Of a stretch of DNA of 64,000 nucleotides, positions 10,651 to 62,652 are shown in pieces. The position numbers and the translations under genes were made by a program. How positions within the stretch are numbered: position 1 is the stretch's first letter; each line of letters begins with the position of its first letter. Origin of the DNA: an uncultured archaeon (GTDB taxonomy: Archaea; Micrarchaeota; Micrarchaeia; Micrarchaeales; CABMGC01); NCBI GenBank assembly GCA_963752955.1, contig CAVWAD010000002.1:8573-72572 (forward strand), given 5' to 3'. The notes under the pieces were generated by a model. It ran no database searches. It saw only the letters and a list, made by a program, of their open reading frames with translations, and was not told the origin of the DNA.

Positions 10651-10685
10651 CAGGATACCTTGTGTTTTAATTAGCACGAAAGAGT

Positions 10686-28232: not shown

Positions 28233-29753
28233 CTTGACTTCGCCACTTCTCTCGTAAACTGACGAAAACTATTTTTATGCCAAGGGCAGTATTCTCATTG
28301 ATAAGATGAAGAACACAACTACGCCCTTGGGCGGTATAGCTATCATCGACAAGATAGAAAATGATTTCGGTCTGCTCTCCTCGGTCTTCGGAGGGATCAT
28401 GAGTCCCGCATACGTCGGGCGGTTGAAACTGCTCCTCAACAACCGCCTGACTTTCGCGACGTCGATACACCAGGTAATTCCCACCTCCTCTGAAGACACC
28501 TGTGCGCTTCTCGGCGCAGAGGGCGCCTCGGAGAGGTCGCTGTACAGAACCGTCGAGAAAGTGGGGCTGCTCTCGGCGGCGATAGTAGAAAGGTATCAGA
28601 ACTTCCTCAACACGAGGGATCTCGCAGACAAGGACCAGAACATAGACTGGTCGTCGATATATTTCGAGGGGAATAAGGCCGAGATGGGCGCACTGGGTTA
28701 CTCCAGGGACCACCGCCCCGACAAGAAGCAGGTGACCTTCGGGATAGCGACGGGAATCAATGGAATCCCTACTGCACTGACGATTCAGAAGGGGAACGTC
28801 CTGGACAAGAAGCATTTTGTCGAGACGTACAACGTCGTCAAGAGGATACTGCAGAAGGATTCCCTATTGATATTCGACTGCGGCGCGAACACGAAAGGTA
28901 ACAAGGAGATGATAGTCCATGACAGGTTCAACTACCTGACCCTGAAGCAGAAGAACGTCAAGAACTATAGGAAATATATCGCCATGTTCAAGTCCGCGGA
29001 GAAATCGACGATAAAAATCGGCGACAACACCTACTTTGCGGCAGTGGTGGAAGAGAACGGCGAATTCCAATACATCTACTTCTCGAAGACGCTTCTCGAG
29101 ACGCAGATACGCAACAAGAACAGGAAGTTCGAAAGGCGAAAGAAGATGGGTAACAAACTCGCGAAGAAAGCGGGAAAACACAAGGCGGTGGAGACTTACC
29201 CCTGCGAGAGGGGATGGGTCGAACTCTACCCGGAACTCCAGACCGCACTGGGATGCGTCGAGAACCCCTACATAAACGGGATAGAGGGGTTCTTTATCCT
29301 CGAGAGCACGGTGAAAGCGAGTCCCGATGATATCCTGAGGATATACAAGCAAAGGGATGCCGCGGAGAAACTCGTGCGCAACATGAAGGAAGGGATCGAA
29401 CTGAGGCCTGTCAGGCACTGGACGAAATATGCAATAATCGGCGCAATCCTGATCGCATTCCTCGCGGAATCCCTGATAAGTTTGACACTGCTTTCATGCA
29501 AGAATCCCCTCGTCAAGAACGTAAAGCTCCTCAAAAAATACCTGACGAATTTGACAGCGACCTTCGTTTACCCTCCCGGAAGGTTCAAATTCACGGTAGT
29601 GAGCAACATTTCTCCCCCGATTTCGGAGATTTTCGGCAGTTTCCTGCGCAGATATGGTACGAAAAACCTCAATCTGCGCTGGTAGGAACCGTTTTGGCGA
29701 ATTGAGTTGGAGGCAACTGTCAGACACTTCGCGGCCTATTTGGCGAAGTCAAG
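28233..29753 (+). mobile_element. IS1634-family insertion sequence, copy B
   Basis: It has the same 1521-bp element and inverted repeats as copy A, in inverted orientation. A 7-bp target duplication TTATTTA lies at 28226-28232 and 29754-29760. Confidence 0.9.
28306..29685 (+). CDS. IS1634-family transposase
   Basis: The translation is identical to that of 17208..18587. Confidence 0.85.
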   Translation: MKNTTTPLGGIAIIDKIENDFGLLSSVFGGIMSPAYVGRLKLLLNNRLTFATSIHQVIPTSSEDTCALLGAEGASERSLYRTVEKVGLLSAAIVERYQNFLNTRDLADKDQNIDWSSIYFEGNKAEMGALGYSRDHRPDKKQVTFGIATGINGIPTALTIQKGNVLDKKHFVETYNVVKRILQKDSLLIFDCGANTKGNKEMIVHDRFNYLTLKQKNVKNYRKYIAMFKSAEKSTIKIGDNTYFAAVVEENGEFQYIYFSKTLLETQIRNKNRKFERRKKMGNKLAKKAGKHKAVETYPCERGWVELYPELQTALGCVENPYINGIEGFFILESTVKASPDDILRIYKQRDAAEKLVRNMKEGIELRPVRHWTKYAIIGAILIAFLAESLISLTLLSCKNPLVKNVKLLKKYLTNLTATFVYPPGRFKFTVVSNISPPISEIFGSFLRRYGTKNLNLRW

Positions 29754-29766
29754 TTATTTATATATC
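29754..29766 (+). promoter_or_regulatory. TATA-like box of the giant surface-protein gene
   Basis: TTATTTATATATC lies about 30 nt upstream of the ATG at 29792. Its first 7 nt are the IS target duplication. Confidence 0.45.
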
Positions 29767-29791
29767 TAGTCAGTTACAGTATAACGTTTGT

Positions 29792-32700
29792 ATGCGAAGG
29801 CGAAAAACAGCCACGAGACCCGCATTACTGTACACCGCGCTGTTCCTGATCCTAGTCGCAGTCATCTCACTGAGCTTCATCCCCGCGAAATCGGCCGCGC
29901 ACGCGGGCGCGGCGGCGCAGTCCGTCGCGTTCTCCGCGCCGATTGCCTCGGGCGCGGGGCCGGCGAACGTGATCCGCCCCGCGGTCATGCAGGAAAGCTC
30001 GGAGTGCTCGGGCAATTCCGACTGCGCCTGCACGAATCCGTGGTGCTACTCGGACTCCGTTGGCGGGCCCGAGAGCTGCCATCCCTGCCCTTTGGGTTCG
30101 CAGCTGGGCCAATCGGCCGACGGGACGGCGATCTGCGCTTATAACAGCGGGGGCTCCATGCCTTTCAGCGCCGGGGCGTCCGGCACCTGCATCAGCGGAG
30201 TGCCGACCGCGAGCAGCACGGCGGCCCAGAGCATCGCGCCCGCGGGGACCCAGTGCTCGGCCGCCAACCCGTGCCCCTGCACGGAGTCGTGGTGCGTCGG
30301 AGGGAGCTGCCAGGCGTGCCCCCAGGGCTTCTACCCGAACGGCGTCGGGGAGTGCGAATCCTTGAGCGGCGGGAGCTATCAGGGCTTCACGACGTCGTCC
30401 GGCTGCACACCCAGCACCGCCGCGTCGACGATCAGCAACACGGGCGGGAGCATCGGGAGCGGGAGCGTGGCGGCGAACTGCCACGGCACCTCTGACTGCT
30501 ACTGCAGCGAACCTTACTGCGTGCAGGGGAACTGCTACCCGTGCCCTGCGAAATACAAGTGGGACAGCGAGACGTCGCAGTGCATATCGCTCGCAGATGG
30601 CTCCATATATTCCGGAACTGCGCCCACCGGCTGCATGAGCGGCATCGTGCAGACGTCGTCGGGCGAGAGCATAGGAAGCGGGAGCGTGGCGGCGAACTGC
30701 GCGAGCCCCGCCGACTGTTTCTGCAGCGAACCGTACTGCAACAGCGGGAACTGCTATCCCTGCCCGCCGACATACTACTGGAACAGCGAGAACTCGCAGT
30801 GCATATCGATCAGCAACGGCGCGGTATACTCCGGGGCGGCGCCCACAAACTGCAAGAGCACCCTTCCCTCGACTTCGGGCAACAGCGGCGGGAGCATCGG
30901 GAGCGGGAGCGTGGCGGCGAACTGCCATGGCACCTCCGACTGCTACTGTAGCAGCCCGTACTGCGTCCAGGGCGACTGCTACCCGTGCCCGTCGACATAC
31001 TACTGGGACAGCCCGGACGCGAAATGCGTATCGCTCGCCGACGGCTCCATCTACGCCGGCGCGAGGCCCACCGACTGCATGAGCGGCGTTCCGTCGACCG
31101 CCGCCACGGCGACCCAGACCACCTCGTCGGGAGGGACCCAGTGCTCGGCCACCAACCTGTGTTCCCAGTGCACTGATTCATGGTGCGTCAGCGGGGAGTG
31201 CCAGCCGTGCCCGTCCGGCTGCTACCTGAGCGGCGCGGGAGGGGCGTGCCTGTCCTATCCGTCGACGCCGGGGGCCAGCGGGGTAAGCAAGTGCGCGCTC
31301 GCCTCGTCTCCTGCCTCCACGTGCGGCAGCACGTCGTCCGGCGGAACTTCATCCAACGGCGTGGCTGGCGGCTCGACGCTCATCGTCAGCCTGCCCGGTT
31401 CCGCGGGCGTCGTTAGCATAGGAGCGGGCTCGCAGGCCGCGCAGCCGAGCGTGAAGACGACGGACGCGACCCTCACGTCGCCGCCCGCGCCCGCTGGCCT
31501 GTCGAAGATCTCGGCCGTCACAGTCAGCGTGACCCCGAACACGTCCGCGCCGGTCAGCGTGACGCTGCCCTACCCGTGCTCCGCGTCTTCGGGAGACATA
31601 GCGCCCTACGCCGTGGTCAACGGCGCGTGGAGCAAGATAGGCTCATTCACGATAAACCCGAAGGCGTGCTCAGTATCGTTTCCGATAAGCTCCGGGTCCC
31701 AGGCTTCCGGCGGCAGCGGCACAACGTCCCAGGCTTCCGGCAGCGGCGCTTCAACAGGCAGCGGGACCGCTTCGAGCGGCGGCGCTTCCTCGAACAGCGG
31801 CGGATTTCCCTCGGTCACGCTACCGATCCAGGCTTCTAGCGCCGTCGGCGCGCGCCCCTTAGTTCCCGCCATCGACGCCGCCCCCGCGGCGCAGGGCGGC
31901 GCTTCCCCAAACGCGGGAATCTCCCTTGACAGTTCGTCCTCGTCGGAGGGCACTTCCCAGACGGTGGGCATATTCGAGACGTCTTCCGGCTCATGCACCA
32001 ACTACTGCGACGGCGTCGGCGGATCCGGCGCCTCGTGCACTAGCATCATGAGCGTGGACGCGCAGGTGGTGCAGATCAGCATATGCCACCTCTACCAGAC
32101 GGTCACGACCGCCTTCGATAACCCGGGGTCGGAGCTGGCGGCGTCGGGACAGGCGGGGCCGTTCGACACCTCCCCGGCGAACGCGGTGAACGACTACAAC
32201 GCGCAGAGCGCGCTGCCCCTCCTCACCTGCCCGAACGCGCCCGAGAAGAACCCAACTGACGCAAGCTACTTCTACTCGGGAGCGGTCCCAAACGTGGCGG
32301 GCGACGCGTGCACGCCGGTGCCCTCGAGTCTGAAGACCGGCATAGACCTCCAGACCGATTTTTCGACCATGCAGATGGTCGCATACTCCTACAGCACCTC
32401 GCCGCTGCCCATACAGGTCAATGGCCACCTGGTGGAACAGCCCACCACGTTCTACGACTACGTGAGCATCGAGGACGCGAAGGTGAACCCCGACATGGTA
32501 GTGTCGAACGTCGGAAGCCTGCAGCTCGAGGACATCGCGTACTCGCCGATGATCCTGGATGGGTCGGGCGGCACGATATCTAGCGCCTTCGCGACCAACA
32601 GCTACGTCTTCGACGGCGTCCCGGCCTCGGCGCAGCACGCCATATGGACCTGGACCGCCCAGTTCGCGGACCTGTCCAACGCCGCGCCCGACCAGCAGAC

Positions 32701-35700
32701 AGTGGTGCTCACCGACCTCCGGGCGAGCTACTCATGGTCGCCGCAGGCGATACACCCCAGCAGCAGCTGCAGCTCCGTCCTGTACTCCTGCGTCTACAGC
32801 TACACCCTCACCGCGGTGACGTCGCTGAGCGGCATCGCCAACACCTACGTGCCCTTCAACGTGGTGACCCCGGACGGGCCGAAGCCGGTGAGCTCCAACG
32901 TACTTCCCTACTTCACGTTCGGCGCCTCGATGCCGACGCCGGACGGGCAGCCGATGTCGCAGTCCTACGACGTCTTCAGCCCGCTGAACTACTACACGCC
33001 GGGGAACTCCATCGAGATGTTCCCCATCAACACGCCGGGCGCGTTCTTCGTGCAGCGCGCCGTGAGCCCGCCCTTCACCAGCTACCTGCTCTCGATGCCC
33101 GAGGGCACGGTGAACAACGCCCTTGCCTTCGGCAGCGCGCTGGACGCCGCGTACGGCAGCGATCCGAAGTTGCCGCCGAGTCTCGTCAGCCTGAGTGCGG
33201 CGAATCCCGGCGCTGGCGCGGCGAATCCGTTCCCGGCCAACCCGATCTCGGTCACCGGCACGCCCGAGGGCTATGTCTTCGTACTAAATTCGAGCTGCAC
33301 GGGGCCGTATCCCTGCACGCCCACTTACTACCTCAGCATCCTCAGGCCGGTGGACAAGGGCTACTACAGCATCCCCGGCTACCAGCCGAACGGCGTGCCC
33401 CAGGCCGCCGCGGGGACCGACGCGGCGGCGAACGCCCTGTGGGCCGGCAACTGGAAGAGCTACTGGGAGAACGTCATGGCGCTGCAGAGCAACTCGATCT
33501 ACGTGGTTAACACGCTCACCCTCAGCACCCCCGGGACCCTCAAGGTGCCCGAGGGGACGGGCCTGCTCTCCGGCTACACCAAGCAGCTCCAGAGCCAGGA
33601 GTTCGGGCTCGGATGGGGGTTCGTGCCGCTCAACATAAGCGCCGACTCGAGCGGGGACGTCTTCATAACCGGCTCCGAGGGCGCGCTGCTGGGCCTGGGC
33701 GGCGGCTTCCCGGCGATAGTGGAGGTAAGCAACACGCTCAACCCCACGCAGACGCAGGTCACAGCGACGCCGCTCGACTGGTCGAGCAGCGTCGGGATCA
33801 ACGCCCTGCCCGAGATAGCGGCCACCTCCACAGGCGGGCTGATCTTCGCGACGGGCCCGAAGGAGGGCAAGATCTACGCGTTCGCGCCGTCAGGCGACGG
33901 GATCTCCAACGCCTACGACATCGACCTCGCTTACTCCGCCAGCACATCCGTGAGCGGATCCGGGACCGTGATGCTTAACGTGAGCTACTACCTGTACCAC
34001 GGCGGGCCCTACGGCGTCCCTATGAACGGCGCTGTGGTGAACGGGGTCCAGACGCCCAACGCCATCGACGGGAACAACAACCTCGACGCTGGCAGGGACT
34101 TCGACACCGACCTGCAGCACCACCCGCTCGGGATCCAGGAATCCGGGGGCTTCCTCTACGTTCTGGACGACTGGAGGGGCTACGCGGGCTCCAGGGAGTC
34201 CTGCCCGCTGCTGGGCTCCTGCACGTTCACGGGCGGGATGGCCTTCGACATGCTCTCTGTGAGGGTGCTCAACTCCACGGGTTCGAACCTGCCCGTGGAC
34301 CCTACGCGCTTCAACGACATGTGGCAGTCGCAGTCGTGCGACAACCCGATGTTCCTGGGCCACACTTCCGGCGGCCTGTCGGCCGGCGACATCACACCGA
34401 GCGCCCCCACGATAAGCAGCGGGCAGTCCGTCACCCTCACCGCCAACCCCTCTGGAGGGACGCCTCCGTACACCTACGGCTGGTACGTGGACCCCGGCTG
34501 CACGTCGCAGATAGCCAGAGCGGCATCCAGTACCTACACCACGTCCCCGACGGGCACGGACACCTTCTATTACAAGGTCAAAGACAGCGCCGCGACTCCC
34601 GCGACGGTGTGCTCCGCGGGAGACACCGTGACCGTGAGCAACGGCGGCGGAGGAAGCGGCATCGGAGCAGCGACCTGCGGCGGACCGATACTCCCGCCCT
34701 GCCCGGCTTCGGGCAGCGCCTCCCAGAGCGGCGGCACCGCTTCGGGTACCGCACCAGCCTCGCAGACTCCGAGCGCCGGCTCGCAGCCCGTGCAGGCCGA
34801 CGTGAACACGTGCTACGACACGACCAAGCCGCCGGCAACTTCCATACCCACGTGCTCGCCGAAGGAGTGCAGCCTCGCCATGGCGGGCTGCGACCTCCCG
34901 GGCGGGGTCGTCGGGACCAAGTTCTCGTGCGAGGACAAGAGCACGGGTAGCGGAGCCTACTCCACGCTCGCCACGAGCCAGTACGCCAGCGGCACCTACC
35001 CCCCCTATGGCTGGGTCCTCTCAGCGGACGTCGTCCCGTGGGGCGGCGAGGGACCCGCCGACAATGCCAAGGAGGTGACCTTCTGCTCCTCGTCGGGATG
35101 CTCGTTCAACCCGGGCAAGATGCCGGGCCCGGACATGTACTCCGGCGGCTACACGCCAGTCGGGCCCGAGCTCTCTGTCGCGAACGCGGAGATAGACTCG
35201 CCCGCCTTCTCGGTGAACTTCAACGGCACGCTTGACCTGCTGCTGAACACGCCGAAGCCGGGCATAGTATCGAGCCTGTGCAGCTTCTTCCTCGGCGCGC
35301 TCTGCGGAAAGCCGCCCAACCCGACGGCCTATTCAGAACTGCTCACCGCGGACCTCAACATACTGAACTACACGAAGATCCTCCAGGGCGAGCCGGCGTA
35401 CACCTGCTACACGACGGACACCAACGACCAGAACTACCGCGCCGGAGGGTGCAACTACCTGCCGGAACTGGGCGACAGCGCGTACACCGGCCCGATATAC
35501 ACTTTCCCGAACCCGCTCGAGTACCTAGAGAGGGTGGGCGGCGCGCAGACGCTGAGCTTCGCAGGCCAGGTGTCCTCGTCATACCCGTCGGGCACCAGCC
35601 ACGAGGGCTGCCAGAGCCTGATAACCGGGGGTCAGGGATGCACGTCCAACGCGCTGTACAACCCCGGCCCGCCCGCGCTGACGATCCAGCAGGATCCCGT

Positions 35701-38122
35701 CGGGTGGGGGCAGCCCGACGTCATAACCGGCAAGGCGGAGGCGGCGACCGACGAGGTCGTCATCTACTTCAACAACGAGGTGGCGATGACCGGAACCGGC
35801 ACCGCGTCGTTCACCGTATCCGGCAATCCTGCGATATGCACCAACCCCGGCAGCGTCACCGAACAGTACACCCTGCCCATCGAGAACTGCCCGCCGCCCC
35901 GCGCGGAACCGTACTCCGTGAACGTTGTCGACCTAACGACCGGCCAGTACAACGCCAACGCGCTGACCGTATATCCCGCGCCGCTCCTTGCGCTGCAGAG
36001 CTCCACGGTAGACGTCGAGCAGTCGGGCGCCGGGAACTCGTGCACCAGCGACCTCATAACCGCGAACGCGCTGGACAACGTGGGCACCGTCGTCATATCC
36101 ATAGCGGAACCCGGGGGCGGCGAGGTCGCGAGCGCCTCTGGCACGGGCTCCGCCTACTACATAATACCGGGCAGCGCCGGGCTCTGCGACGGCCTCACCG
36201 CGGGCACGTACACCGTCACCGCGAGCGTGGCCGGCCAGAGCCCCGTCAGCCAGAGCCTCTACGTCAGCACGACCACGACCCAGCAGGCCCTGCCGGCCGG
36301 GTCGGTGGCGACGCAGGCGCTGTCGACCAGCGTGGGCGGCTATGTTGTGGTGCCCTATAAGTACACCTACTCACTGCAGCAGGACTGGGGCGGCGCCGCC
36401 GAGGTCGTCAGCCTGTCCAGCACCACGCAATGTGACTGCAAGACGGGCTGCAGGACGCCTACTGTGGGAGCCGACTGCCCCTACAACGTGGTCCCCGACC
36501 GGCAGTTCTCGCAGCAGACGGTCTACAGCTACGCGCTCACGAGCGGCACTTCGGATACGCTGACCGCGACGGTCGAGAGCGGCGACACCTACCTGAAGAG
36601 CCTCAGCTCCGGCACGCTCTACGTCCCGAACATGTCCGACGCGGGCGTAGTGGTGCCTCCGCAGGTGCTCTACGTCCTTATGAACAACAGGCTCTTCGGC
36701 ACGCTCTACGTCAACGACACTGGCTGCAAGCATAACGGCGCCTCGGTCTGGGACTGCTCCGGGAACCCGCAGTACGTGCTCAACGCGACCAGGCAGGACA
36801 AGTACGCCATGAACTCATACTCGCAAGACGGCGGCGGCGCCGGTGGCTCCGGAAGCTACGAGACCCTGCAGGTCCTGCCCGAGGAGGAGCCCGAGTACGG
36901 CGCGAACCTCATAGCCCCGTCCCAGCTCCAGCAGGCGGTGACCACCCAGAACGCGATCGGCTTCGCGTACGAGCTGACGGGCGGGATGGACTTCGTCTCG
37001 ATCTTCGACCTCTACAGGCAGGTCGCCTACTCCAACCCGCTCTACATGTACCTCAACAGCACGCCGTTCTTCGAGAACGGGCTGCCGGTCAACGCGATGG
37101 GCTACCACAGGCTGACGTACGTCATGGAGGACAGGTTCGGCAACAGGATCATGGCGCCGATGGACGTCGACGTGGCCAACCCAGTGACGATAGCCCTCAA
37201 CGTCAGCACCGCGGTGGACCAGAACAACGCCAACCAGACCGCCCTCACGATAAACGGGGTCGCCGGGTCGTACTCGGACTTCGGCACGGTCTTCACCCCG
37301 CTGCCGGCGGGCCAGCCGGTATACCTCTACTACAACAGCAACCTCAACTACGTCGAGTACAACCCCATGCGCAACCCGCTCGACGCCGTCATCTGCGCCT
37401 ACAACCTCAACGACCCGACGAAGCAGCCGTGCCACCAGTCCGACCCGACTTACACCGGAAGGCAGGCGAACGCCGGCCAGATGACTTTCGCGACGTCGTA
37501 CAACTCCGCAAGCCCGGACGAGTGCAACCCCCCGCCGAACAGCCTGCTGGCCAAGAGCTGGACACCGTGCAACGTCTACGGGAACCTCGACCTCCCCTCG
37601 GCGTGCACCGGCGCGGGGCCGCAGCAGTTCTGCATGCCCGTGTACGCCAACGGCACGGGCGAGTGCACGTCGCAGCTCGGGCTCTTCGCGATCGCCCAGA
37701 CCGACGCCAGCGGCGCGTTCAGCGCAAACATAATAGCGTGCGGGAGCAGGCAGGACGAGATAACCGCGCAGTACTACGGATGGTCACCTACGCCGGAGCC
37801 GATCTCCGTGACGCAGGTGCCGCTCGCGCTCTCCGAGAGCAGGGTCAACACGCCGGGCTCAGCGGGGAGCGCGGCGATAACGTCCAACGAGCTCAACTAC
37901 TACTCGGCTCCGGCGCAGGCCACGACGACTTTCACGATAGGCCTCTTCGAGCTCAACTACGGCGACCTTGGGGTAGCCGCGTTCGGAATCGGCATAGTGG
38001 CGGTGCTGGCGATCCTGGTCGCGAAGAAGGCGGCGGAGGATAGGAGGGCGAAGAGGCGGCGCGTCGGGGTCCGCGGCCGGACGGCAGCAGGAAGGATGCG
38101 GAGGCGGACGCCTCCGATGTAG
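29792..38122 (+). CDS. giant (2776 aa) secreted, C-terminally membrane-anchored cell-surface protein with Cys-rich modules
   Basis: The signal peptide reads MRRRKTATRPALLYTALFLILVAVISLSF..AKSAA. It is followed by six tandem 8-Cys modules, S/T/G-rich linkers, an Ig/PKD-like segment (SGGTPPYTYGWY) and many N-x-S/T sequons. The C-terminus has a TM helix (VAAFGIGIVAVLAILVA) and a basic tail. The track ORF start at 29654 lies inside the IS and is an artefact. Confidence 0.85.
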   Translation: MRRRKTATRPALLYTALFLILVAVISLSFIPAKSAAHAGAAAQSVAFSAPIASGAGPANVIRPAVMQESSECSGNSDCACTNPWCYSDSVGGPESCHPCPLGSQLGQSADGTAICAYNSGGSMPFSAGASGTCISGVPTASSTAAQSIAPAGTQCSAANPCPCTESWCVGGSCQACPQGFYPNGVGECESLSGGSYQGFTTSSGCTPSTAASTISNTGGSIGSGSVAANCHGTSDCYCSEPYCVQGNCYPCPAKYKWDSETSQCISLADGSIYSGTAPTGCMSGIVQTSSGESIGSGSVAANCASPADCFCSEPYCNSGNCYPCPPTYYWNSENSQCISISNGAVYSGAAPTNCKSTLPSTSGNSGGSIGSGSVAANCHGTSDCYCSSPYCVQGDCYPCPSTYYWDSPDAKCVSLADGSIYAGARPTDCMSGVPSTAATATQTTSSGGTQCSATNLCSQCTDSWCVSGECQPCPSGCYLSGAGGACLSYPSTPGASGVSKCALASSPASTCGSTSSGGTSSNGVAGGSTLIVSLPGSAGVVSIGAGSQAAQPSVKTTDATLTSPPAPAGLSKISAVTVSVTPNTSAPVSVTLPYPCSASSGDIAPYAVVNGAWSKIGSFTINPKACSVSFPISSGSQASGGSGTTSQASGSGASTGSGTASSGGASSNSGGFPSVTLPIQASSAVGARPLVPAIDAAPAAQGGASPNAGISLDSSSSSEGTSQTVGIFETSSGSCTNYCDGVGGSGASCTSIMSVDAQVVQISICHLYQTVTTAFDNPGSELAASGQAGPFDTSPANAVNDYNAQSALPLLTCPNAPEKNPTDASYFYSGAVPNVAGDACTPVPSSLKTGIDLQTDFSTMQMVAYSYSTSPLPIQVNGHLVEQPTTFYDYVSIEDAKVNPDMVVSNVGSLQLEDIAYSPMILDGSGGTISSAFATNSYVFDGVPASAQHAIWTWTAQFADLSNAAPDQQTVVLTDLRASYSWSPQAIHPSSSCSSVLYSCVYSYTLTAVTSLSGIANTYVPFNVVTPDGPKPVSSNVLPYFTFGASMPTPDGQPMSQSYDVFSPLNYYTPGNSIEMFPINTPGAFFVQRAVSPPFTSYLLSMPEGTVNNALAFGSALDAAYGSDPKLPPSLVSLSAANPGAGAANPFPANPISVTGTPEGYVFVLNSSCTGPYPCTPTYYLSILRPVDKGYYSIPGYQPNGVPQAAAGTDAAANALWAGNWKSYWENVMALQSNSIYVVNTLTLSTPGTLKVPEGTGLLSGYTKQLQSQEFGLGWGFVPLNISADSSGDVFITGSEGALLGLGGGFPAIVEVSNTLNPTQTQVTATPLDWSSSVGINALPEIAATSTGGLIFATGPKEGKIYAFAPSGDGISNAYDIDLAYSASTSVSGSGTVMLNVSYYLYHGGPYGVPMNGAVVNGVQTPNAIDGNNNLDAGRDFDTDLQHHPLGIQESGGFLYVLDDWRGYAGSRESCPLLGSCTFTGGMAFDMLSVRVLNSTGSNLPVDPTRFNDMWQSQSCDNPMFLGHTSGGLSAGDITPSAPTISSGQSVTLTANPSGGTPPYTYGWYVDPGCTSQIARAASSTYTTSPTGTDTFYYKVKDSAATPATVCSAGDTVTVSNGGGGSGIGAATCGGPILPPCPASGSASQSGGTASGTAPASQTPSAGSQPVQADVNTCYDTTKPPATSIPTCSPKECSLAMAGCDLPGGVVGTKFSCEDKSTGSGAYSTLATSQYASGTYPPYGWVLSADVVPWGGEGPADNAKEVTFCSSSGCSFNPGKMPGPDMYSGGYTPVGPELSVANAEIDSPAFSVNFNGTLDLLLNTPKPGIVSSLCSFFLGALCGKPPNPTAYSELLTADLNILNYTKILQGEPAYTCYTTDTNDQNYRAGGCNYLPELGDSAYTGPIYTFPNPLEYLERVGGAQTLSFAGQVSSSYPSGTSHEGCQSLITGGQGCTSNALYNPGPPALTIQQDPVGWGQPDVITGKAEAATDEVVIYFNNEVAMTGTGTASFTVSGNPAICTNPGSVTEQYTLPIENCPPPRAEPYSVNVVDLTTGQYNANALTVYPAPLLALQSSTVDVEQSGAGNSCTSDLITANALDNVGTVVISIAEPGGGEVASASGTGSAYYIIPGSAGLCDGLTAGTYTVTASVAGQSPVSQSLYVSTTTTQQALPAGSVATQALSTSVGGYVVVPYKYTYSLQQDWGGAAEVVSLSSTTQCDCKTGCRTPTVGADCPYNVVPDRQFSQQTVYSYALTSGTSDTLTATVESGDTYLKSLSSGTLYVPNMSDAGVVVPPQVLYVLMNNRLFGTLYVNDTGCKHNGASVWDCSGNPQYVLNATRQDKYAMNSYSQDGGGAGGSGSYETLQVLPEEEPEYGANLIAPSQLQQAVTTQNAIGFAYELTGGMDFVSIFDLYRQVAYSNPLYMYLNSTPFFENGLPVNAMGYHRLTYVMEDRFGNRIMAPMDVDVANPVTIALNVSTAVDQNNANQTALTINGVAGSYSDFGTVFTPLPAGQPVYLYYNSNLNYVEYNPMRNPLDAVICAYNLNDPTKQPCHQSDPTYTGRQANAGQMTFATSYNSASPDECNPPPNSLLAKSWTPCNVYGNLDLPSACTGAGPQQFCMPVYANGTGECTSQLGLFAIAQTDASGAFSANIIACGSRQDEITAQYYGWSPTPEPISVTQVPLALSESRVNTPGSAGSAAITSNELNYYSAPAQATTTFTIGLFELNYGDLGVAAFGIGIVAVLAILVAKKAAEDRRAKRRRVGVRGRTAAGRMRRRTPPM
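30005..31330 (+). repeat. six tandem ~75-aa Cys-rich coding modules
   Basis: The module consensus is C-x5-6-C-x-C-x3-(W/Y)C-x3-4-C-x2-CP...C...C. The DNA stretches starting at 30443 and 30887 are identical for 41 nt and have 3 mismatches over about 67 nt. Confidence 0.85.
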
Positions 38123-38163: not shown

Positions 38164-39394
38164 GGCTTCATCCCATAATTCATGCCGACGCTAATCCTGA
38201 CCTTTTCGGGCGGTAAGATTTTGTTCCTTTCCGTCGATGCCACATTATGGGAAAGCCCAAAAGGAGGGCAAACCCGAAGGTGGTAACGAGAGTCGATAGA
38301 AACATAGCGGTATTGACCGCAAAGACCGCGAAGAGATTCGCCAATAGGCTTCCTCCCCCTTGGGAGAAGAAGACGAGGGGAAGTCCCCCGATACACGACA
38401 GCAGAACAGTATTCGTGCTGTGCCTCCTAATGGTCTCCCTGAACCTGACTTATGATGGCATGGAGGTGGAAAAACGGAAGGGATACCTTCAACAGGTGTT
38501 GAAGGCCCCGAACCTCCCGAGTCGTAGCGCATTACATCGAGGAATGCAACGACTTGATCAAAAATACATCAGGAAGTTCAATAAACTTCTCGTTAGGAAG
38601 TTTGTCAACAAGGGAATGACCGTTGCGGTGGATTCGACAGGGATACGACTGATGGTCAGCAGTTCGTGGTACGACATCCGAATTGGGAGGGTCAACAAAA
38701 GGAGGGACAACGCGAAATTGCACATATCTGTGGCCCTGCGAAGAAACATTATCGTAGGATACAAGATAACGTCGTGGAAACGAAACGATTCGCCGCAACT
38801 GGGGTTCCTATTGCGCGACATCGACGAACTTCTCCAGGTGCTGGGAGATGCAGGATACCTCGGCCGAGACAACTGCAACGTAGTTGCCAGCAAGAACGGG
38901 AGGCCGTTCTTCGCCCTTAAGGATGGAGTAAAAAGCAGGGCGAAAGGTTCGCAGGCATGGAAGGAGATGGTCGTATTCGCGAGGAAAAAGAAGGAGCTGT
39001 ACGACGCGATTTATCATGCGCGTTCGGTGATAGAAAGCATCTTCTCCGCGGTAAAGAGACGGTATGGAAGTTGCGTAAGGGCTGTGAATCGGAAGACGCG
39101 AAACATGGCGATCGCGCTGAGGGTGATCGCCTTCAACATAAAACAGCGCCTCTACGACGCAACGGCAAGGCGACTAGGGTTGCCATTCTGGGTAAAGTGC
39201 GACCGGTAAAAAGGACCTGAAGGTCATCAACAGTTAGCGGAAGCGAAGTCACATGAGTTCTAGGCCGATGTTTTCCGTCGAAATCTACGCCTTTTTCAGA
39301 AAATCGATGCCACATACGGCCCAGAACATGCAGACAATTCTTTCTCATCGACGGACAACCGCCTTCGCGGCGTCATTCTTTATGGGATGAAGCC
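38164..39394 (+). mobile_element. IS5-family-like insertion sequence (1231 bp)
   Basis: Perfect 15-bp inverted repeats GGCTTCATCCCATAA (38164-38178) and TTATGGGATGAAGCC (39380-39394) bound the element. A 9-bp target duplication TACCATGGG lies at 38155-38163 and 39395-39403. Confidence 0.9.
38247..39209 (+). CDS. DDE transposase, IS4/IS5 superfamily
   Basis: The 320-aa protein has VAVDSTGIRL, LGDAGYLGRD and a YHARSVIESIFSAVKRRYG (Y-x2-R-x3-E) region. Confidence 0.85.
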   Translation: MGKPKRRANPKVVTRVDRNIAVLTAKTAKRFANRLPPPWEKKTRGSPPIHDSRTVFVLCLLMVSLNLTYDGMEVEKRKGYLQQVLKAPNLPSRSALHRGMQRLDQKYIRKFNKLLVRKFVNKGMTVAVDSTGIRLMVSSSWYDIRIGRVNKRRDNAKLHISVALRRNIIVGYKITSWKRNDSPQLGFLLRDIDELLQVLGDAGYLGRDNCNVVASKNGRPFFALKDGVKSRAKGSQAWKEMVVFARKKKELYDAIYHARSVIESIFSAVKRRYGSCVRAVNRKTRNMAIALRVIAFNIKQRLYDATARRLGLPFWVKCDR

Positions 39395-40896: not shown

Positions 40897-40968
40897 GGGC
40901 TTGTAGCGCAACGGTAGCGCGTCTCGTTTGCAACGAGAAGGTTACGGGTTCGAATCCCGTCAAGTCCA
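40897..40968 (+). tRNA. tRNA-Ala (anticodon UGC)
   Basis: The cloverleaf has acceptor GGGCTTG/CAAGTCC with the G3:U70 Ala identity pair, anticodon stem TCTCG/CGAGA, loop TTTGCAA and T-arm ACGGG-TTCGAAT-CCCGT. Confidence 0.9.
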
Positions 40969-40996
40969 CTTTTCGATCTGATGGGACGGCCTAGGC

Positions 40997-41266
40997 CTAG
41001 TATTTATCTGGATGATGCTCGAGATTCACCAAGGAGACTATCTGTTCCTTGTCGTCAACTCTGAACATCAGCACAAACCTGCCGTGCATCAGGTGCACTT
41101 CCCGTACGCCGGCATAGCTGCCATGCATCCATTTGCCTGCCGTATAAGGCGCTTCGGCTATCTTGTCAAGCTTTTTCATAAGCTGATAATAAAGCGCCCT
41201 GTCCCGCTTCTGCAATCTGGCAAGCTCGGCTTCCACACTCTCTACGGGCCTTACCAGATACGTCAT
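40997..41266 (-). CDS. RelE/ParE-family toxin
   Basis: The 89-aa protein has the C-terminal pattern GRFVLMFRVDDKEQIVSLVNLEHH. It lies immediately downstream of a small antitoxin ORF. Confidence 0.65.
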   Translation of the reverse strand: MTYLVRPVESVEAELARLQKRDRALYYQLMKKLDKIAEAPYTAGKWMHGSYAGVREVHLMHGRFVLMFRVDDKEQIVSLVNLEHHPDKY

Positions 41267-41277
41267 TCTAACACGAA

Positions 41278-41505
41278 TTAGGCAAGATTGCGTCTCTTTA
41301 TCGCCCTGTCAAGCTCAGAAACAGATCTGTAAGTGTGGTATTTGCCTTTCGACAGCTCCATGAGCCCGCGTTCCAGCCCAAGGTTCCGCTTCTGACTTAC
41401 CACTTTCCTCAGTACCTTGACCTCGGCTTCAAGGCGGCCTATTTTGGCCGCCATACCCTTCAGTTCCTTCATAATCTGTACCTGTTCGGCCTTCATGTCC
41501 ATCAA
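41278..41505 (-). CDS. antitoxin partner (75 aa, coiled-coil)
   Basis: It is positionally coupled, 11 nt upstream of the toxin. It is similar in layout to 46972..47172. Confidence 0.5.
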   Translation of the reverse strand: MMDMKAEQVQIMKELKGMAAKIGRLEAEVKVLRKVVSQKRNLGLERGLMELSKGKYHTYRSVSELDRAIKRRNLA

Positions 41506-41627
41506 ATATTATGTGATTATAATGACTTAATAATCTTGCGTATGACAGTGAGATTGAGCGACATCTTTAGATAGCCAATTATTGATGCCATGAGGACTTA
41601 TGATGTAGTTTGTATCGTCTGGCAGCA

Positions 41628-41667
41628 AAAATACGCCTCACCTTATGTAGTAAGTCCGTCAAGTCCA
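41628..41667 (+). repeat. cassette junction A: conserved arm plus a 12-nt copy of the tRNA-Ala 3' end
   Basis: AAAATACGCCTCACCTTATGTAGTAAGT is followed by CCGTCAAGTCCA, which equals 40957-40968. It matches junction B at 37/40. Confidence 0.9.
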
Positions 41668-41678
41668 TCTAACCCAGG

Positions 41679-41897
41679 CTAGACGTACTTGAGGATATCT
41701 TCTTTTGTCAAGTTGCAATCGCTTAGGATCTTATTTAGTATTCCCTGCCCCAGTTCCCTGTTGTGGTAGGGAATCGTGGTGTAGTGCTGACCGTCGGTCA
41801 AGAAAATATGGCTTCCCTTTTGCCTAAGGGCGCGGTAGTTGTAGTATTTAGTAAGTATCTTGAGCAAACCCGTGTCTTTGATGGTCAGACGAGGCAT
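41679..41897 (-). CDS. hicA: HicA-family toxin
   Basis: The protein has the pattern RQKGSHIFLTDGQHYTTIPYHNRELGQGILNKIL. Confidence 0.8.
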   Translation of the reverse strand: MPRLTIKDTGLLKILTKYYNYRALRQKGSHIFLTDGQHYTTIPYHNRELGQGILNKILSDCNLTKEDILKYV

Positions 41898-41911
41898 ATG
41901 ACCACCGATCC

Positions 41912-42097
41912 TTAGACGCTGGCTCTAATGGCGATCTTATTCTTGCGCATCTCAACTAGGCCTTCGACTGTGACCTCTATGGCCTCTTTCAGGTTCTTTT
42001 TAAGCTCCCTTATCGTCTTTGCCTGAGTGTTTATGTGGAGCGAGGGTATTCGCGCAGCGTACATCCCTTTCTCCTTCCATATTTCTATGTTTTGCAT
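41912..42097 (-). CDS. hicB: HicB-like antitoxin (UPF0150 type)
   Basis: This 61-aa ORF lies upstream of hicA and has the YAARIPSL..TQAKTIRELKKNLKEAIE pattern. Confidence 0.65.
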   Translation of the reverse strand: MQNIEIWKEKGMYAARIPSLHINTQAKTIRELKKNLKEAIEVTVEGLVEMRKNKIAIRASV

Positions 42098-42159
42098 GCG
42101 CCTACCAAATATATTATGCTATGAAAACTTATAAAGCAGTTAGCCGTCTTCCGGTATCG

Positions 42160-42205
42160 AAAATACCCCTCACCTTACGTCGTAAGTCCGTCAAGTCCAC
42201 TTTTC
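42160..42205 (+). repeat. cassette junction B: conserved arm plus an 18-nt copy of the tRNA-Ala 3' end and its downstream flank
   Basis: AAAATACCCCTCACCTTACGTCGTAAGT is followed by CCGTCAAGTCCACTTTTC, which equals 40957-40974. Confidence 0.9.
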
Positions 42206-42234
42206 TTGTCCTCCATGAGTCTCACAGATGGCTA

Positions 42235-42750
42235 TCACCCGCGTGTCATTATTGCTTTCTTAACCAGTCGTTTAAGGTACTGATTCTTCAGCCTTCTGTA
42301 GGTCTCACCGTCTCCCCTGGCGAGCTTCACCGCCTTCCGCTTTACCTCCTCGTACTTCCTGGCTTCTTCCCTGTGCTCCCTCAGATAATCCCTCAAGGCG
42401 ACCATTTCGATAAAGTCCCTGCTGCCCTGGAAGGTAAGGTGCAGGTGAACCCTCCGTTCTCTTCCATTCAATCCGTAGTCCCTGAAGAAAAACATCCTCA
42501 CCCGAGTACCGGCGGCGGGCACGAATTCATAGCCTCCCTTTTCCAGCAAGTTAGTTGCGGGGCCGATGCTCCTTCTTGGGACCGCTATTGCGATATCGAT
42601 CAGGCCCTTGCCCCTTAATCCCTTCACGGCGCTGCTGCCGACGTGCTCTATTCTCGCGTGCCTTGGCAGTATTCTTCTCAGCCGCGCCAGCTCCTTCTTG
42701 TACAGTATCGGGAAATCCCTGCTGTACCTCCTGAACTTGTATTTCTCCAT
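42235..42750 (-). CDS. GrpB-family protein
   Basis: IEHVGSSAVKGLRGKGLIDIAIAV and HLHL motifs are present. The ATG at 42750 (MEKYKF) was chosen because the longer track ORF overlaps nac on the other strand. Confidence 0.75.
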   Translation of the reverse strand: MEKYKFRRYSRDFPILYKKELARLRRILPRHARIEHVGSSAVKGLRGKGLIDIAIAVPRRSIGPATNLLEKGGYEFVPAAGTRVRMFFFRDYGLNGRERRVHLHLTFQGSRDFIEMVALRDYLREHREEARKYEEVKRKAVKLARGDGETYRRLKNQYLKRLVKKAIMTRG

Positions 42751-47239: not shown

Positions 47240-49003
47240 TCAGCTCGCCAGCCTTCCCCCGTTGGGCAGCTCGATCGTGGTGTCGTACTTGTAGCCGATG
47301 CCCAGCTTGACGCACATCTCGGCCTTCGCGAGCTCGGCGCCTATGAACACCGCGTGATCGATCCTCGATATTATGTCGAAGTGCTTTATCTTGTAGAGGA
47401 GCTGCCTGGCGGTCTTGCCCTCCAGCTCGAGCAGAATGCCCCCGGTCTCCGGGTTCTGCAGCTTCAGCTTTATAGTGCCGTCGACGACCACGATGTTGAC
47501 GATCCCCCTGGGGTCCAGGTCCTTCTCCGGCTCGAAGTACATGTTTATGGGCGCGTCGTCGACCCTCTCCTTGATCAGACTCTCGACGGTCTGCCAGTCC
47601 TTCTGGTATACGTGCGCGGACTGGCTCTCTATCACGACGAATCCCGGGCGCTTGCCGGATTCCCTCGCCACCCTCCCCAGCAGCCTGGTTATCCCGTAGA
47701 AGTTGAAGAACCATCCCTGGCAGATGTCGTGGGTTCTCACGAACACGTGCAGGTCCACCCTGTCGTTCCTGACCGAGAAAGAGAATTTCAGCAGGCATGG
47801 CCTGCCTGTCTCGAGCTTCGAATGGTACCTGACGTCCCATAGGATGGCCTCCTTGTCCAGTTCGGAGCTCTTCCTCTTTATCCTGTCTATGACGTTCGCT
47901 ATCTGGTCGGTCTTCGGCATAAGGCCCTCCACCAGTATATCCAGTTTTTCCTTTTCGGGAAGGCCCTTTGCCTCCACCGCCGCGATCAGCGCCTCCGTCC
48001 CGCTCTTGTCCCTCTGGGAGTTGAGCTTCACGAACTCCTTTGCGGCATCGTAGCCCTTCCTCTCGAAGAGATCCTTGATCGTCCTGTCGACCTCATGGGG
48101 TCTCGGGAACGCGTGGAGGAGTTCCGTGTACATGTACGAATAGTCCTTCGGCCTCTCGAACTTGCGGACGCCCTCGAAGATCTGGGTGGTGTATGGCTCG
48201 GCGGTGAACTGGGCCTTGTAATAGTTCTCCAGGCTCTCCTTCGTTATGCCGAGCGCCTTCGTCTTCAGCAGCCAATCGGGCAGGTACACGTCGTCGGGGT
48301 TCTCGTTCTCTATGACGACCACCGCATCCCTTATCTCCTTGACGTCAGATTCGCCTTCGTTGATGGGATGCTTGATCCCGTATTTCCATATGCTGTGCAA
48401 CAGCCTCAGATACGCGTCGGCGCCCTTCTTTTCCCTTATGAGATAGGTGTATCTCTCGGAAGGCAGCATGTCGGGGGCCCTGACTACGAACTCGCTGAAC
48501 CTCACGGGCTCCATGTACTTCGCACCGGATTCCAATTGGAGTTCCTGCGCGTCGGGAGTGGCACCCGAGCCTATATCCTTCAGTTCCACGTTCTTCAGTA
48601 TGCTTGCCAGAACCTTCTTGTCGATCTCGTCGACCAGCCTGAACGGCGTGCCGTTTATCTGCCCTCTATCGTCGAAACCGTTGTTCCAGAGACTGACCAG
48701 AGTATTCTTTCCGGCAATACCGATATCGGTGTTGCTGAGCTTGTCCGCCCCCCACACGACCAGGCGCTTTATCTGCGGGTTCATCGCCAGGTTGTAGAGG
48801 ATTATGTTCACCCCGAAAGGCGACCTCAGGTTGCCGATCAGCGCGAAGGCGTCCTTGAAGGAGGGGTTGGCGTCCATCACGCTCTTGACGTCCTGCCACA
48901 CCACGCACAGCGCGGTGCCGCTGCTGGGGTTCCCGACCACGACAGGGAACTCCACGTTCTTGTACAGCTCCAGGCCGTCAACATTGGAAATGTAATCCAT
49001 CAA
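47240..49003 (-). CDS. thymidylate-synthase-like protein with large N- and C-terminal extensions
   Basis: The core motifs GRPCLLKFSF (P-C nucleophile) and VRTHDICQGWFFNFYG correspond to ThyA PCH.. and RS.D..LG.PFN. The protein is 587 aa, versus about 220-320 aa expected for ThyA. Confidence 0.65.
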   Translation of the reverse strand: MMDYISNVDGLELYKNVEFPVVVGNPSSGTALCVVWQDVKSVMDANPSFKDAFALIGNLRSPFGVNIILYNLAMNPQIKRLVVWGADKLSNTDIGIAGKNTLVSLWNNGFDDRGQINGTPFRLVDEIDKKVLASILKNVELKDIGSGATPDAQELQLESGAKYMEPVRFSEFVVRAPDMLPSERYTYLIREKKGADAYLRLLHSIWKYGIKHPINEGESDVKEIRDAVVVIENENPDDVYLPDWLLKTKALGITKESLENYYKAQFTAEPYTTQIFEGVRKFERPKDYSYMYTELLHAFPRPHEVDRTIKDLFERKGYDAAKEFVKLNSQRDKSGTEALIAAVEAKGLPEKEKLDILVEGLMPKTDQIANVIDRIKRKSSELDKEAILWDVRYHSKLETGRPCLLKFSFSVRNDRVDLHVFVRTHDICQGWFFNFYGITRLLGRVARESGKRPGFVVIESQSAHVYQKDWQTVESLIKERVDDAPINMYFEPEKDLDPRGIVNIVVVDGTIKLKLQNPETGGILLELEGKTARQLLYKIKHFDIISRIDHAVFIGAELAKAEMCVKLGIGYKYDTTIELPNGGRLAS

Positions 49004-49109
49004 ACCACGCGTTCCGATCAGTAGCTTTGATGCTCATTTATTGAGCTTTTTATCCTTAAATATATGCGCATTATGATGTCTTTGCACCTAAATCGACTTA
49101 AAATGCGAA

Positions 49110-49141
49110 TTTTAGGTGCAACTTTCACCTTTTAGGTGCAA
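49110..49141. repeat. 32-bp subterminal direct repeat, left copy
   Basis: TTTTAGGTGCAACTTTCACCTTTTAGGTGCAA is identical to 50484-50515. It contains two TTAGGTGCAA motifs and the palindrome CACCTTTTAGGTG. Confidence 0.95.
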
Positions 49142-49209
49142 GATTAACTTAGATGCAAAGCCGGACCAAGGTATAGTAAAGGATCATTTAAAAACCCAGC
49201 TATGCTATT

Positions 49210-50307
49210 ATGAACATGGCAGTTATAGGGATAGATACCCTATCCATCGATATAAAAAACTCTCAACGTCAGAATGCAAAAGAATCATCTTTTGCATTTA
49301 GAACCATTCTTGGAGTTGGAGTCGTAGTAAATGATTATGAAAAATTTAGATTGGCGTATTCAGAAGCTATATTAAAAGCGTTCAAAACAATTTCATATAC
49401 TGAAAAAGAAAAGGAAGTTTATTGCAATTACGATTTCAGGAAAATATATGAACTTAGCAATGCCCCCGTACATAACTTGTTTTTCAGGGAAATTTCAAAG
49501 CACATAGATGGGCTATATGTCTTTAACACAACTTTTTCAAAATCAACAAAGATGTTTGCCTATAGTGAGATAAGCGAAGAGCTAGGGCATAAGCTTTCTG
49601 AAGACGCATTTGATTTTGATAAGGCAATAAATAAGATAACTGCTTACTTTCCTCTGATTGGAGTATGGTGTGATAGGGACTATCTGCGCGATGAAGTCTC
49701 ACAGATATATATTGATGGAATTACTCCGATACGTTTCAATGGCTGGAGAAACATCCAGCATCTGCCCCTAGAGATTTTATTCGAAGGAGATAAGTGCAAT
49801 GCTGTAATCGCAACCGCGGATATCATTGCATATCTTATTAGTATGAGATTGCGCCAAAAACGGCTAAAATACGGCGAGGATGGATTCAGGGAAGCACTGC
49901 CAGAGCTAAACGATAGATTACGGTATGTTGCTGTTACTCGAGGATTTTTCAAGTATATAAACCCGGTCAGTAATAAAAACTTGAATATTAACAGTTACCT
50001 AAACCATCCCATAATATTCTTATTCAAAGACGAAGCCAAACAAGTTACAACAGAAGTAATTCGTGCATTACCTGGATTCGACTCTGTTTATAATTTTGCT
50101 TTTAGGAAAAATGGGTCTGTTAAATTCTTCGACAAACAAAACGACCAAGGTAAAATCAGAGAGGGCGACTATATAGTTTATTTTTCTGAAGATGGTAAAA
50201 GAGAACTAAGTACAATTAAAGGAGTTATGGGAGAGAACATAAACCTTCTAAGCTTTGACCAAGTGCGCAAAGAAGGTGTTTATAAACATGCCAAACCGCA
50301 AGGATAA
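49210..50307 (+). CDS. uncharacterised 365-aa protein (possible RNase-H-like/DUF3800-like fold)
   Basis: This is an intact AT-rich ORF. The only motif-level hints are the N-terminal VIGIDT and a later NAVIATADIIAYLIS. No confident family assignment was made. Confidence 0.6.
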   Translation: MNMAVIGIDTLSIDIKNSQRQNAKESSFAFRTILGVGVVVNDYEKFRLAYSEAILKAFKTISYTEKEKEVYCNYDFRKIYELSNAPVHNLFFREISKHIDGLYVFNTTFSKSTKMFAYSEISEELGHKLSEDAFDFDKAINKITAYFPLIGVWCDRDYLRDEVSQIYIDGITPIRFNGWRNIQHLPLEILFEGDKCNAVIATADIIAYLISMRLRQKRLKYGEDGFREALPELNDRLRYVAVTRGFFKYINPVSNKNLNINSYLNHPIIFLFKDEAKQVTTEVIRALPGFDSVYNFAFRKNGSVKFFDKQNDQGKIREGDYIVYFSEDGKRELSTIKGVMGENINLLSFDQVRKEGVYKHAKPQG

Positions 50308-62629: not shown

Positions 62630-62652
62630 GTGTTGCAGGCAACCTTATGGAA

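Follow-up and report, generated by a model that had tools for sequence, protein, structure and literature searches.

The window analysed here is a stretch of 64,000 nucleotides (nt) from contig CAVWAD010000002.1 (assembly GCA_963752955.1, positions 8,573 to 72,572) of an uncultured archaeon. It contains three short segments, each of which holds a single toxin-antitoxin (TA) gene pair and ends with a copy of the 3' end of the tRNA gene upstream of it. Two of these segments, or cassettes, stand in tandem downstream of tRNA-Ala(UGC), and the third is situated downstream of tRNA-Val(GAC). We refer to the repeated tRNA 3' end as the core, and to the sequences abutting the core within a cassette as the left arm (on the tRNA side) and the right arm (at the far end).

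Tandem cassettes and their repeats

The tRNA-Ala(UGC) locus has the following features.

40897-40969 (ARAGORN) or 40897-40968 (Rfam), plus strand: tRNA-Ala(UGC), RF00005 at 75.3 bits; presumed integration target (attB/attL side)
40957-40968, plus strand: core copy 1, CCGTCAAGTCCA, the last 12 nt of tRNA-Ala (3' side of the T-stem, 3' strand of the acceptor stem, discriminator)
40969-41667, plus strand: cassette 1, 699 nt, 47% GC; RelE/ParE-like TA pair, right arm and core
40997-41266, minus strand: toxin of the RelE/ParE/YafQ superfamily, 89 aa (Pfam ParE_toxin 5e-4; NCBIfam YafQ 9.7e-8 and RelE_StbE 1.8e-5; concordant matches, all under the curated cutoffs of Pfam and NCBIfam)
41278-41505, minus strand: putative antitoxin, 74-75 aa, a candidate by its position 11 nt upstream of the toxin gene
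41621-41667, plus strand: right arm of cassette 1 (41621-41655) and core copy 2 (41656-41667), from the 53-nt repeat, the arm alignment and the arm profile
41668-42199, plus strand: cassette 2, 532 nt, 46% GC; hicAB, right arm and core
41679-41897, minus strand: HicA toxin, 72 aa (Pfam HicA_toxin 8.7e-9, 35.8 bits against a cutoff of 27)
41912-42097, minus strand: HicB-like antitoxin, 61 aa (Pfam UPF0150 1.6e-4, HicB_lk 0.04)
42153-42205, plus strand: right arm of cassette 2 (42153-42187), core copy 3 (42188-42199) and native flank CTTTTC (42200-42205)

The tRNA-Ala(UGC) gene is 72 nt long, has the discriminator A at 40968 and does not encode CCA. Its terminal 12-mer CCGTCAAGTCCA is found exactly on the plus strand three times in the window, at 40957-40968, 41656-41667 and 42188-42199, with start-to-start distances of 699 and 532 nt. 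The chance expectation is ∼0.24 matches with one mismatch included, and the observed number was reached in none of 100 shuffles, so the repeats are not due to chance. An 18-mer formed by the core and CTTTTC is present at 40957-40974 and 42188-42205, and the middle core is followed by TCTAAC. A preliminary description of this DNA, made from the sequence alone, had listed these 12- and 18-mers, and all its coordinates are exact. The same holds for the TA-only segments it had measured at about 0.69 and 0.52 kb (a relE/parE-like pair, then hicAB), and for the toxin stop codons, which lie 28 nt (cassette 1) and 11 nt (cassette 2) after the preceding core.

The repetition extends past the tRNA-derived part, a point beyond that description. 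The ends of cassettes 1 and 2 (41615-41667 and 42147-42199) are alike over 53 nt with 85% identity, and ∼35 nt of this repeat comprise the arm upstream of the core, which is neither tRNA-like nor tRNA-derived. At their left ends the cassettes differ: cassette 1 begins with CTTTTC and has no recognisable left arm, and in cassette 2 the left arm is cut back to TCTAACC, being ∼40 nt shorter than in a related hicAB cassette from another genome (locus L076; fetched loci are given L numbers).

An assembly artefact was considered and rejected. The independent Logan contig L002, from another run, matches positions 40939-42659 of the window exactly, spanning all three cores, and an ENA contig 99.2% identical to the window has the same cassette layout.

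We also screened 116 tRNA genes, from the window and all fetched loci, for an exact repeat of the last 12 nt located 60-3000 nt downstream. Such repeats were found only at the window's own locus (in the window and three other assemblies) and at two other loci. In L049, from a metagenome-assembled genome (MAG) of Methanobacteriota, the 3' 12-mer of tRNA-Ala(CGC) has an exact repeat 88 nt downstream, a gene-less scar; in L062, from a Promethearchaeia MAG, the 3' 12-mer of tRNA-Ala(CGC) is repeated exactly 2676 nt downstream, with non-TA genes in between. The tRNA-Leu gene of the window (12196-12282) has no repeat of its own 3' end within the window.

The third cassette, also additional to the preliminary description, is located on the minus strand at tRNA-Val(GAC).

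63399-63469, minus strand: tRNA-Val(GAC) (ARAGORN), presumed second integration target in the window
62588-63398, minus strand: cassette 3 (vapBC-type), 811 nt, 42% GC, downstream of tRNA-Val(GAC)
∼63360-63398, minus strand: left arm, which aligns with the left arms of integrase-bearing elements
63066-63287, minus strand: antitoxin candidate, 73 aa
62653-63069, minus strand: VapC toxin of the PIN_2 family (1.1e-22, 81 bits, above cutoff)
62600-62634, minus strand: right arm, CGAAAATGCACATCACCTGACGTAGGATGA, found with the profile trained on tRNA-Ala cassette arms (E 2.4e-4)
62588-62599, minus strand: core, an exact copy of the tRNA-Val 3' 12-mer, CCTGTGCCTCCA

In the window cassettes, the partner genes are located 11-14 nt upstream of the toxin gene or overlap it. 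The putative antitoxin of cassette 1 had no family match in Pfam or NCBIfam. The GC content of the cassettes is 42-47%, compared to 55-60% in their flanks and 57% in the window.

The right arm of cassette 3, CGAAAATGCACATCACCTGACGTAGGATGA, and the cassette arms at tRNA-Ala, such as CGAAAATACCCCTCACCTTACGTCGTAAGT, are homologous, while the core adjoining the former is that of tRNA-Val. In the arm alignment, ∼30 nt abutting the core are common to five TA cassettes, that is, the three in the window and those of L076 and L061. These five represent four unrelated TA families, both orientations and two different tRNAs. When a profile was built from the four arms of tRNA-Ala cassettes with the core excluded, the tRNA-Val arm was the best non-training match in the window, with the E-value given above, and the next match was an inverted copy within the left arm of cassette 3. 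With a profile based only on two arms from other genomes, the top four matches in the window were all cassette ends. Since the arm is common to unrelated TA genes and to two tRNAs, it tracks the attachment (att) site, not the TA genes or the tRNA.

The two arms are imperfect inverted repeats of each other. The left-arm pattern, TCnTACnyCAAGTnAnGTGGACnTnGGC, directly follows the core in cassette 3, in the hicAB cassette of L076 and in the integrase-bearing loci L063, L077 and L067. Because the left arm inverts the right one, the attP site reconstructed from these sequences would be a ∼75-nt imperfect palindrome centred on the tRNA-derived core. Such an imperfect palindrome around the core would match the layout expected for a site of a tyrosine recombinase. 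Searches with degenerate arm patterns (the right arm against genome and viral contigs, the left arm against viral contigs) yielded only unrelated bacterial and phage matches with no tRNA context, in a number near that expected by chance.

Related sites and integrase-bearing elements

The 3' half of the tRNA, the flanks and protein matches indicate a Micrarchaeota-like DPANN archaeon as the source of the window, and in this group the tRNA-Ala(UGC) site varies greatly. A scan of metagenomes with the 3' half of the tRNA gave only three short contigs, two of which, L069 and L070, were usable as empty sites. In the window, the empty-site junction would be tRNA-Ala joined straight to CTTTTCTTGTCC. 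In L069 and L070, tRNA-Ala is directly followed by CTTTTCTT, the same 8 nt as in the far-end flank of the window, and the upstream flank is 85% identical to that of the window. Synteny with the window extends to either side of the site in loci L072-75, which have the same upstream protein and acidic peptide, NAC, DUF424 and glycosyltransferase genes downstream, and no TA genes between tRNA-Ala and the downstream genes.

Single-cassette sites were found in two loci. L076 has hicAB alone after tRNA-Ala, with 81% nucleotide identity to cassette 2. The L061 insert is of the vapBC type (an AbrB-like protein and a PIN_3 toxin), is 946 nt long and is closed by aCGTCAAGTCCA and TTATAAATCTAAT; in L009, a close relative of L061, the flank TTATAAATCTAAT stands directly after tRNA-Ala, and the site is thus empty. 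Empty, one-cassette and two-cassette states thus all occur at tRNA-Ala(UGC). The preliminary description had proposed comparing relatives for zero, one or two cassettes and would have abandoned its interpretation if they showed no length polymorphism and a structured RNA or terminator explained the repeats. The site is polymorphic, and the repeats have neither a consensus RNA structure nor a terminator hairpin (see below).

At the amino acid level, HicA and HicB of L076 are 89% and 95% identical to those of the window, compared to 29% for the neighbouring host protein. As this protein is a poor clock and the non-coding flank near the tRNA is conserved to the same degree as the cassette, horizontal transfer of hicAB is no more than a possibility. 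The ratio of nonsynonymous to synonymous substitution rates (dN/dS) between the window and L076 is 0.03 for hicA and 0.04 for hicB, with dS being near saturation. Hence hicAB is under strong purifying selection; the genes are kept by selection, which fits a role in addiction. These low ratios also lend indirect support to growth arrest by the predicted toxins and its neutralisation by the predicted antitoxins.

Several further observations concern these and similar loci. The tRNA-Ala(UGC) genes of L009 and L061 seem, by eye, to have an intron-like insertion of ∼40 nt after the anticodon loop, and the tRNA of the window has none. Within the left end of the L061 cassette, positions ∼3730-3770 (48-88 nt after tRNA-Ala) carry a T-arm-like fragment of a different tRNA, GTCGTCAGCGGGTTTGAATCCCGCCGTTTACTA, which may be an earlier att scar. 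In L160, hicBA (2289-2855) starts 56 nt after tRNA-Gln(CUG), and its HicA is 75% identical to that of the window. Behind the stop codon of hicA, at a distance of 528 nt downstream from the original, is a 14-nt copy (13 of 14 identical) of the anticodon-arm region of tRNA-Gln, which may reflect integration elsewhere within a tRNA gene. In L162, ∼45-nt direct repeats (20-70 and 640-690) bracket hicBA, with HicA 83% identical to that of the window. It is followed by a convergent RelE/ParE-like pair, forming another TA stack with different arms. We rejected the possibility that this pair is a re-sorted cassette 1, as its ParE-like toxin has just 27% identity to that of cassette 1.

The tRNA genes carrying cassettes in the window are associated with integrase-bearing elements in related genomes. 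In L063 (same contig as L050) and L077, a gene for a tyrosine integrase of ∼390-400 aa starts ∼60 nt after the same tRNA-Ala(UGC). In L165, the tRNA-Val(GAC) gene is identical to that of the window and has the same Lactamase_B flank, and is followed by a gene for a 400-aa integrase, 77% identical to the L063 integrase, and by restriction-modification cargo. More than 1000 proteins belong to the integrase family at E <= 1e-60, most of them encoded in MAGs of Micrarchaeota and 'Marsarchaeota'. In all nine loci inspected, the integrase gene is less than 200 nt downstream of a tRNA gene, these tRNAs being Ala-UGC, Ala-GGC, Pro, Val-UAC, Val-CAC and Val-GAC. Two of the loci contain full elements, 9843 and 7162 bp long, with the 3' end of the tRNA repeated over 12 nt at their boundaries, and the position and length of the core are as in the cassettes. 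For the closest integrase elements, attR was not reached: L063, L077, L165 and L168 either stop at a contig end or have no accessible core copy, and L170 has none within 11 kb. The left arms of cassette 3 and of the L076 cassette align with those of the integrase elements in L063, L077 and L067.

We also looked for an extrachromosomal form of the elements. A single integrase query had no match among viral contigs; an integrase alignment query retrieved from them only distant relatives with at most 42% identity, located at provirus ends and uninformative as to attP; and attP-like junction patterns gave chance matches or none in the viral contigs.

Full-size elements of this family in L165, L167, L168/L170 and L067 have restriction-modification genes (a methylase with Vsr, an MmeI-like enzyme, and an N6_N4 methylase with ResIII). 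The L067 integrase is encoded by two separate open reading frames (ORFs; 10001-10882 and 10928-11203), and a second tyrosine recombinase of 200 aa is present there. L165 has a further PIN/VapB pair at 5016-5614, two genes upstream of tRNA-Val, with no adjoining tRNA core.

Origin of the cassettes

Taken together, these data make it probable that the three cassettes are non-autonomous, att-flanked inserts produced by site-specific recombination at tRNA 3' ends by tyrosine integrases of an element family that is common across Micrarchaeota. In the parent family, a gene for an integrase of ∼400 aa is placed immediately downstream of the target tRNA gene; integration would duplicate a core of 11-13 nt, the last nucleotides of the tRNA, and an arm of ∼30 nt would abut the core at each end of the element. 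The two inserts at tRNA-Ala would have been stacked by accretion, the second integrating into one of the two att sites flanking the first. Each event would regenerate the tRNA gene and leave an arm and a core at the far end of the insert, and the native flank, starting with CTTTTC, would be pushed behind the last core; either order of insertion would fit the junctions. This serial insertion at a tRNA attB site with displacement of the flank had been suggested in the preliminary description, and it gains support from the relatives with no cassette or one cassette and from the integrase gene at the same tRNA.

The cargo of each cassette is a single type II TA operon, presumably transcribed from a promoter of its own, so an integrase would have to be supplied in trans by a full-size element. 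The preliminary description had seen no integrase, and indeed none of this family was found in the cassettes or anywhere in the 64-kb window (tblastn; best E 1.5 with the family hidden Markov model). Hence the cassettes are non-autonomous, matching the concept of cis-mobilizable elements (CIMEs). From the sequences at hand, the junctions appear to have been made by this integrase family, and the TA pairs would act as addiction modules. The TA pair probably explains why the inserts have survived, since deletions removing it would be counter-selected. Cassettes 1 and 2 are probably fixed, with the left arm lost, while cassette 3 and the L076 cassette keep both arms. The extra CTTTTC with which cassette 1 begins may belong to the att identity or may supply an oligo-T terminator required by the tRNA.

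Several findings weigh against this interpretation. The absence of an integrase of this family from the window is one of them, a helper in the same cell being hypothetical. None of the full-size elements was found to end in a cassette-type right arm, those of L065 and L067 being different and the closest integrase loci stopping short of attR; as a result, the link to the full elements rests on the left arm and the tRNA targets in common. A canonical left arm is missing from cassettes 1 and 2 and from the L061 insert, and the core copy in L076 is reduced to 8 nt. The 81% nucleotide identity of hicAB between the window and L076 is close to the 85% of the conserved tRNA-proximal flank, and this cassette may be vertically inherited. 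Finally, no excised circle, empty-site read or variant in cassette number was found within the population; all four assemblies have two cassettes.

How the cassettes became so small is a separate question, and here two readings are roughly equally probable. According to the first, which we regard as a serious possibility although short of probable, the cassettes are immobile relics: each is the remnant of a separate 7-10 kb element that suffered internal deletions, the TA genes were kept because their loss is toxic, and nothing has ever moved, or can move, at the small size. This reading overlaps the integrase-mediated origin favoured above and differs from it only in mobility and in the source of the small size. 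Decay is suggested by the short distances of 28 and 11 nt from core to toxin stop codon in cassettes 1 and 2, whose left arms are gone, by cassette 2 resembling the L076 cassette with a further ∼40 nt of the left arm removed, and by the eroded attR core of L076. The constant cassette number in four assemblies and the failure to find a full element with a cassette-type right arm point the same way, and TA-only chromosomal islets have already been proposed to be remnants of mobile elements (PMC12548467). Yet all five small inserts contain exactly one TA operon and no gene fragments, and the right arm is conserved beside unrelated cargo, although a dead relic would provide no selective reason for that. 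Moreover, for L076 and cassette 3 this reading requires deletions that ended just inside an intact left arm on two independent occasions, and close HicA relatives (74-89% identity) are found in other contexts, beside tRNA-Gln in L160 and within the ∼45-nt direct repeats of L162.

According to the second reading, which we put forward tentatively, the cassettes are genuinely mobile without an integrase of their own: one TA operon plus a site of ∼45 nt, formed by the conserved arm and a swappable tRNA core, may be captured serially by the trans-acting integrases of visiting elements. If so, tRNA genes would be integron-like platforms that gather addiction and defence cassettes in very small symbiont genomes. 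The preliminary description had assumed insertion at minimal cargo size. The inserts do consist of TA genes without an integrase, but since the left arms of cassettes 1 and 2 are mostly lost, insertion at the present size and insertion with later whittling down are both plausible.

Two explanations that dispense with integration are very improbable. The repeats could be a functional signal, such as a structured RNA, a terminator of the tRNA or TA operons, or a TA operator. Oligo-T tracts terminate archaeal transcription, and the CTTTTC after the tRNA is such a tract, which could account for the flank apart from any att identity; also, cassettes 1 and 2 and the L076 cassette have the arm upstream of the TA promoter. 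The arm is, however, downstream of the toxin gene in cassette 3 and L061, its position being fixed relative to the core and not to the genes, and it remains constant although the core is that of either tRNA-Ala or tRNA-Val. We rejected the structured RNA or terminator: joint folding of the five arm-core regions gives a consensus energy of -0.16 kcal/mol, without compensatory pairs or covariation, there is no terminator-like hairpin at the repeats, and Rfam matches only the tRNA.

An origin without any site-specific recombinase, by tandem tRNA duplication and decay, slippage, or homologous recombination between short tRNA-like sequences, with TA genes lying between the repeats by chance, is just as hard to sustain. 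Short tRNA-like fragments do occur near other TA cassettes (T-arm-like in L061, the anticodon-arm-like 14-mer after hicA in L160), but the sequence upstream of the core is not tRNA-like and yet common to the Ala and Val sites, the identity stops precisely where the tRNA gene ends, just as it does in the integrase elements of 7-10 kb, and relatives have clean empty sites with the native flank.

Comparison with known systems and other features of the window

Already known are CIMEs and tandem arrays at tRNA genes, as well as integrative elements and integrons with TA cargo. CIMEs and tandem accretion at tRNA genes have been described for ICESt1-related elements of streptococci (PMC5704250). Similar to CIMEs, the cassettes lack integration and transfer genes, retain attL and attR, are stacked in tandem at an att site in a tRNA 3' end, and would depend on an integrase from elsewhere. 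In particular, cores are present at both ends and the TA pair comprises the only genes. The affiliation with the att family of the full elements is putative: the left arms of cassette 3 and L076, the tRNA targets and the core length match, while no full element was found with the common right arm and cassettes 1 and 2 have no left arm. Unlike the CIMEs of Firmicutes, which span kilobases, the cassettes are archaeal (probably from Micrarchaeota), measure 0.5-0.8 kb and carry exactly one TA operon. One arm is common to several unrelated TA cassettes, a conjugative helper is not implied, and mobilisation is putative.

The TA gene cassettes of the chromosomal (super)integrons of Vibrio, reportedly treated by Guerout et al. 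in 2013 (listed in PMC12548467), are also similar, being ∼0.5-1 kb long, with only a TA operon under its own promoter, a terminal recombination site and a head-to-tail arrangement at a single platform. Superintegron TA cassettes are thought to stabilise the array. By contrast, an attC-like folded site was not found here (the arm and core fold at the energy given above), and there is no adjacent intI/attI platform, as no tyrosine recombinase of the tested family is encoded in the window; the platform is the tRNA gene. Furthermore, the core is a tRNA 3' end that changes with the tRNA, and the likely recombinase is a tRNA-targeting integrase.

Among archaeal elements, a survey of integrated mobile genetic elements of Thaumarchaeota reported arrays of tyrosine-recombinase elements at a single site, with the smallest cryptic element, of 2.6 kb, retaining its integrase (PMC6563490), and SSV-type integrases mediate integration into archaeal tRNA genes (PMC7253208). 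The likeness includes short direct repeats, re-use of the site leading to arrays, and frequent VapBC and restriction-modification cargo. As in tRNA-integrated elements, the 12-mer is exact at three Ala and two Val positions, the tRNA genes are intact and relatives have unoccupied sites. The cassettes do not encode an integrase of their own and are 3-5 times smaller than 2.6 kb. In the parent family, the integrase gene is intact beside the tRNA, whereas integrases of the SSV type split their own gene.

Miniature inverted-repeat transposable elements (MITEs) are miniature non-autonomous derivatives of insertion sequences (IS), depend on DDE transposases, produce target-site duplications and usually have no genes. 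The resemblance is only by analogy: both are short, retain at their termini the recognition sequences of an autonomous element (imperfect inverted arms in the cassettes) and require an enzyme acting in trans. Unlike MITEs, the cassettes use site-specific recombination at tRNA genes and carry a selfish TA operon. In the open-access literature, we found no description of att-flanked, TA-only cassettes of 0.5-0.8 kb that share an arm and use several tRNAs, nor one for the DPANN archaea.

Many chromosomal TA loci have no visible link to mobile elements, and how they arrive and persist is debated. Here the origin is traceable, as three operons within 64 kb and two in relatives bear both recombination scars and have arms in common with integrase elements. 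The cassettes provide a concrete archaeal system for CIMEs and accretion, and the sequences of the arm, core and integrase allow for direct tests of mobilisation in trans. The genomes of DPANN archaea are tiny and host-dependent, and a compact path for gene flux would exist if addiction or defence genes accumulated cassette by cassette beside tRNA genes. For annotation, a tRNA gene whose last 11-13 nt recur within ∼1 kb downstream is a cheap and specific marker of such inserts.

Other features of the window may be noted. Two genes of DDE_Tnp_1 transposases (IS elements) are located on the plus strand at 1222-2169 and 38247-39209, the second one being 1.7 kb upstream of tRNA-Ala, in a local dip of GC content. 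The strongest low-GC island of the window, 48700-50300 (35-38% vs. the mean of 57%), may be another foreign insert; the 365-aa ORF at 49210-50307 and its neighbours had no Pfam match. Upstream of the second IS element, a giant ORF of 2822 aa occupies positions 29654-38122 on the plus strand, with no Pfam family assigned to it in the gene tables of the near-identical ENA contig.

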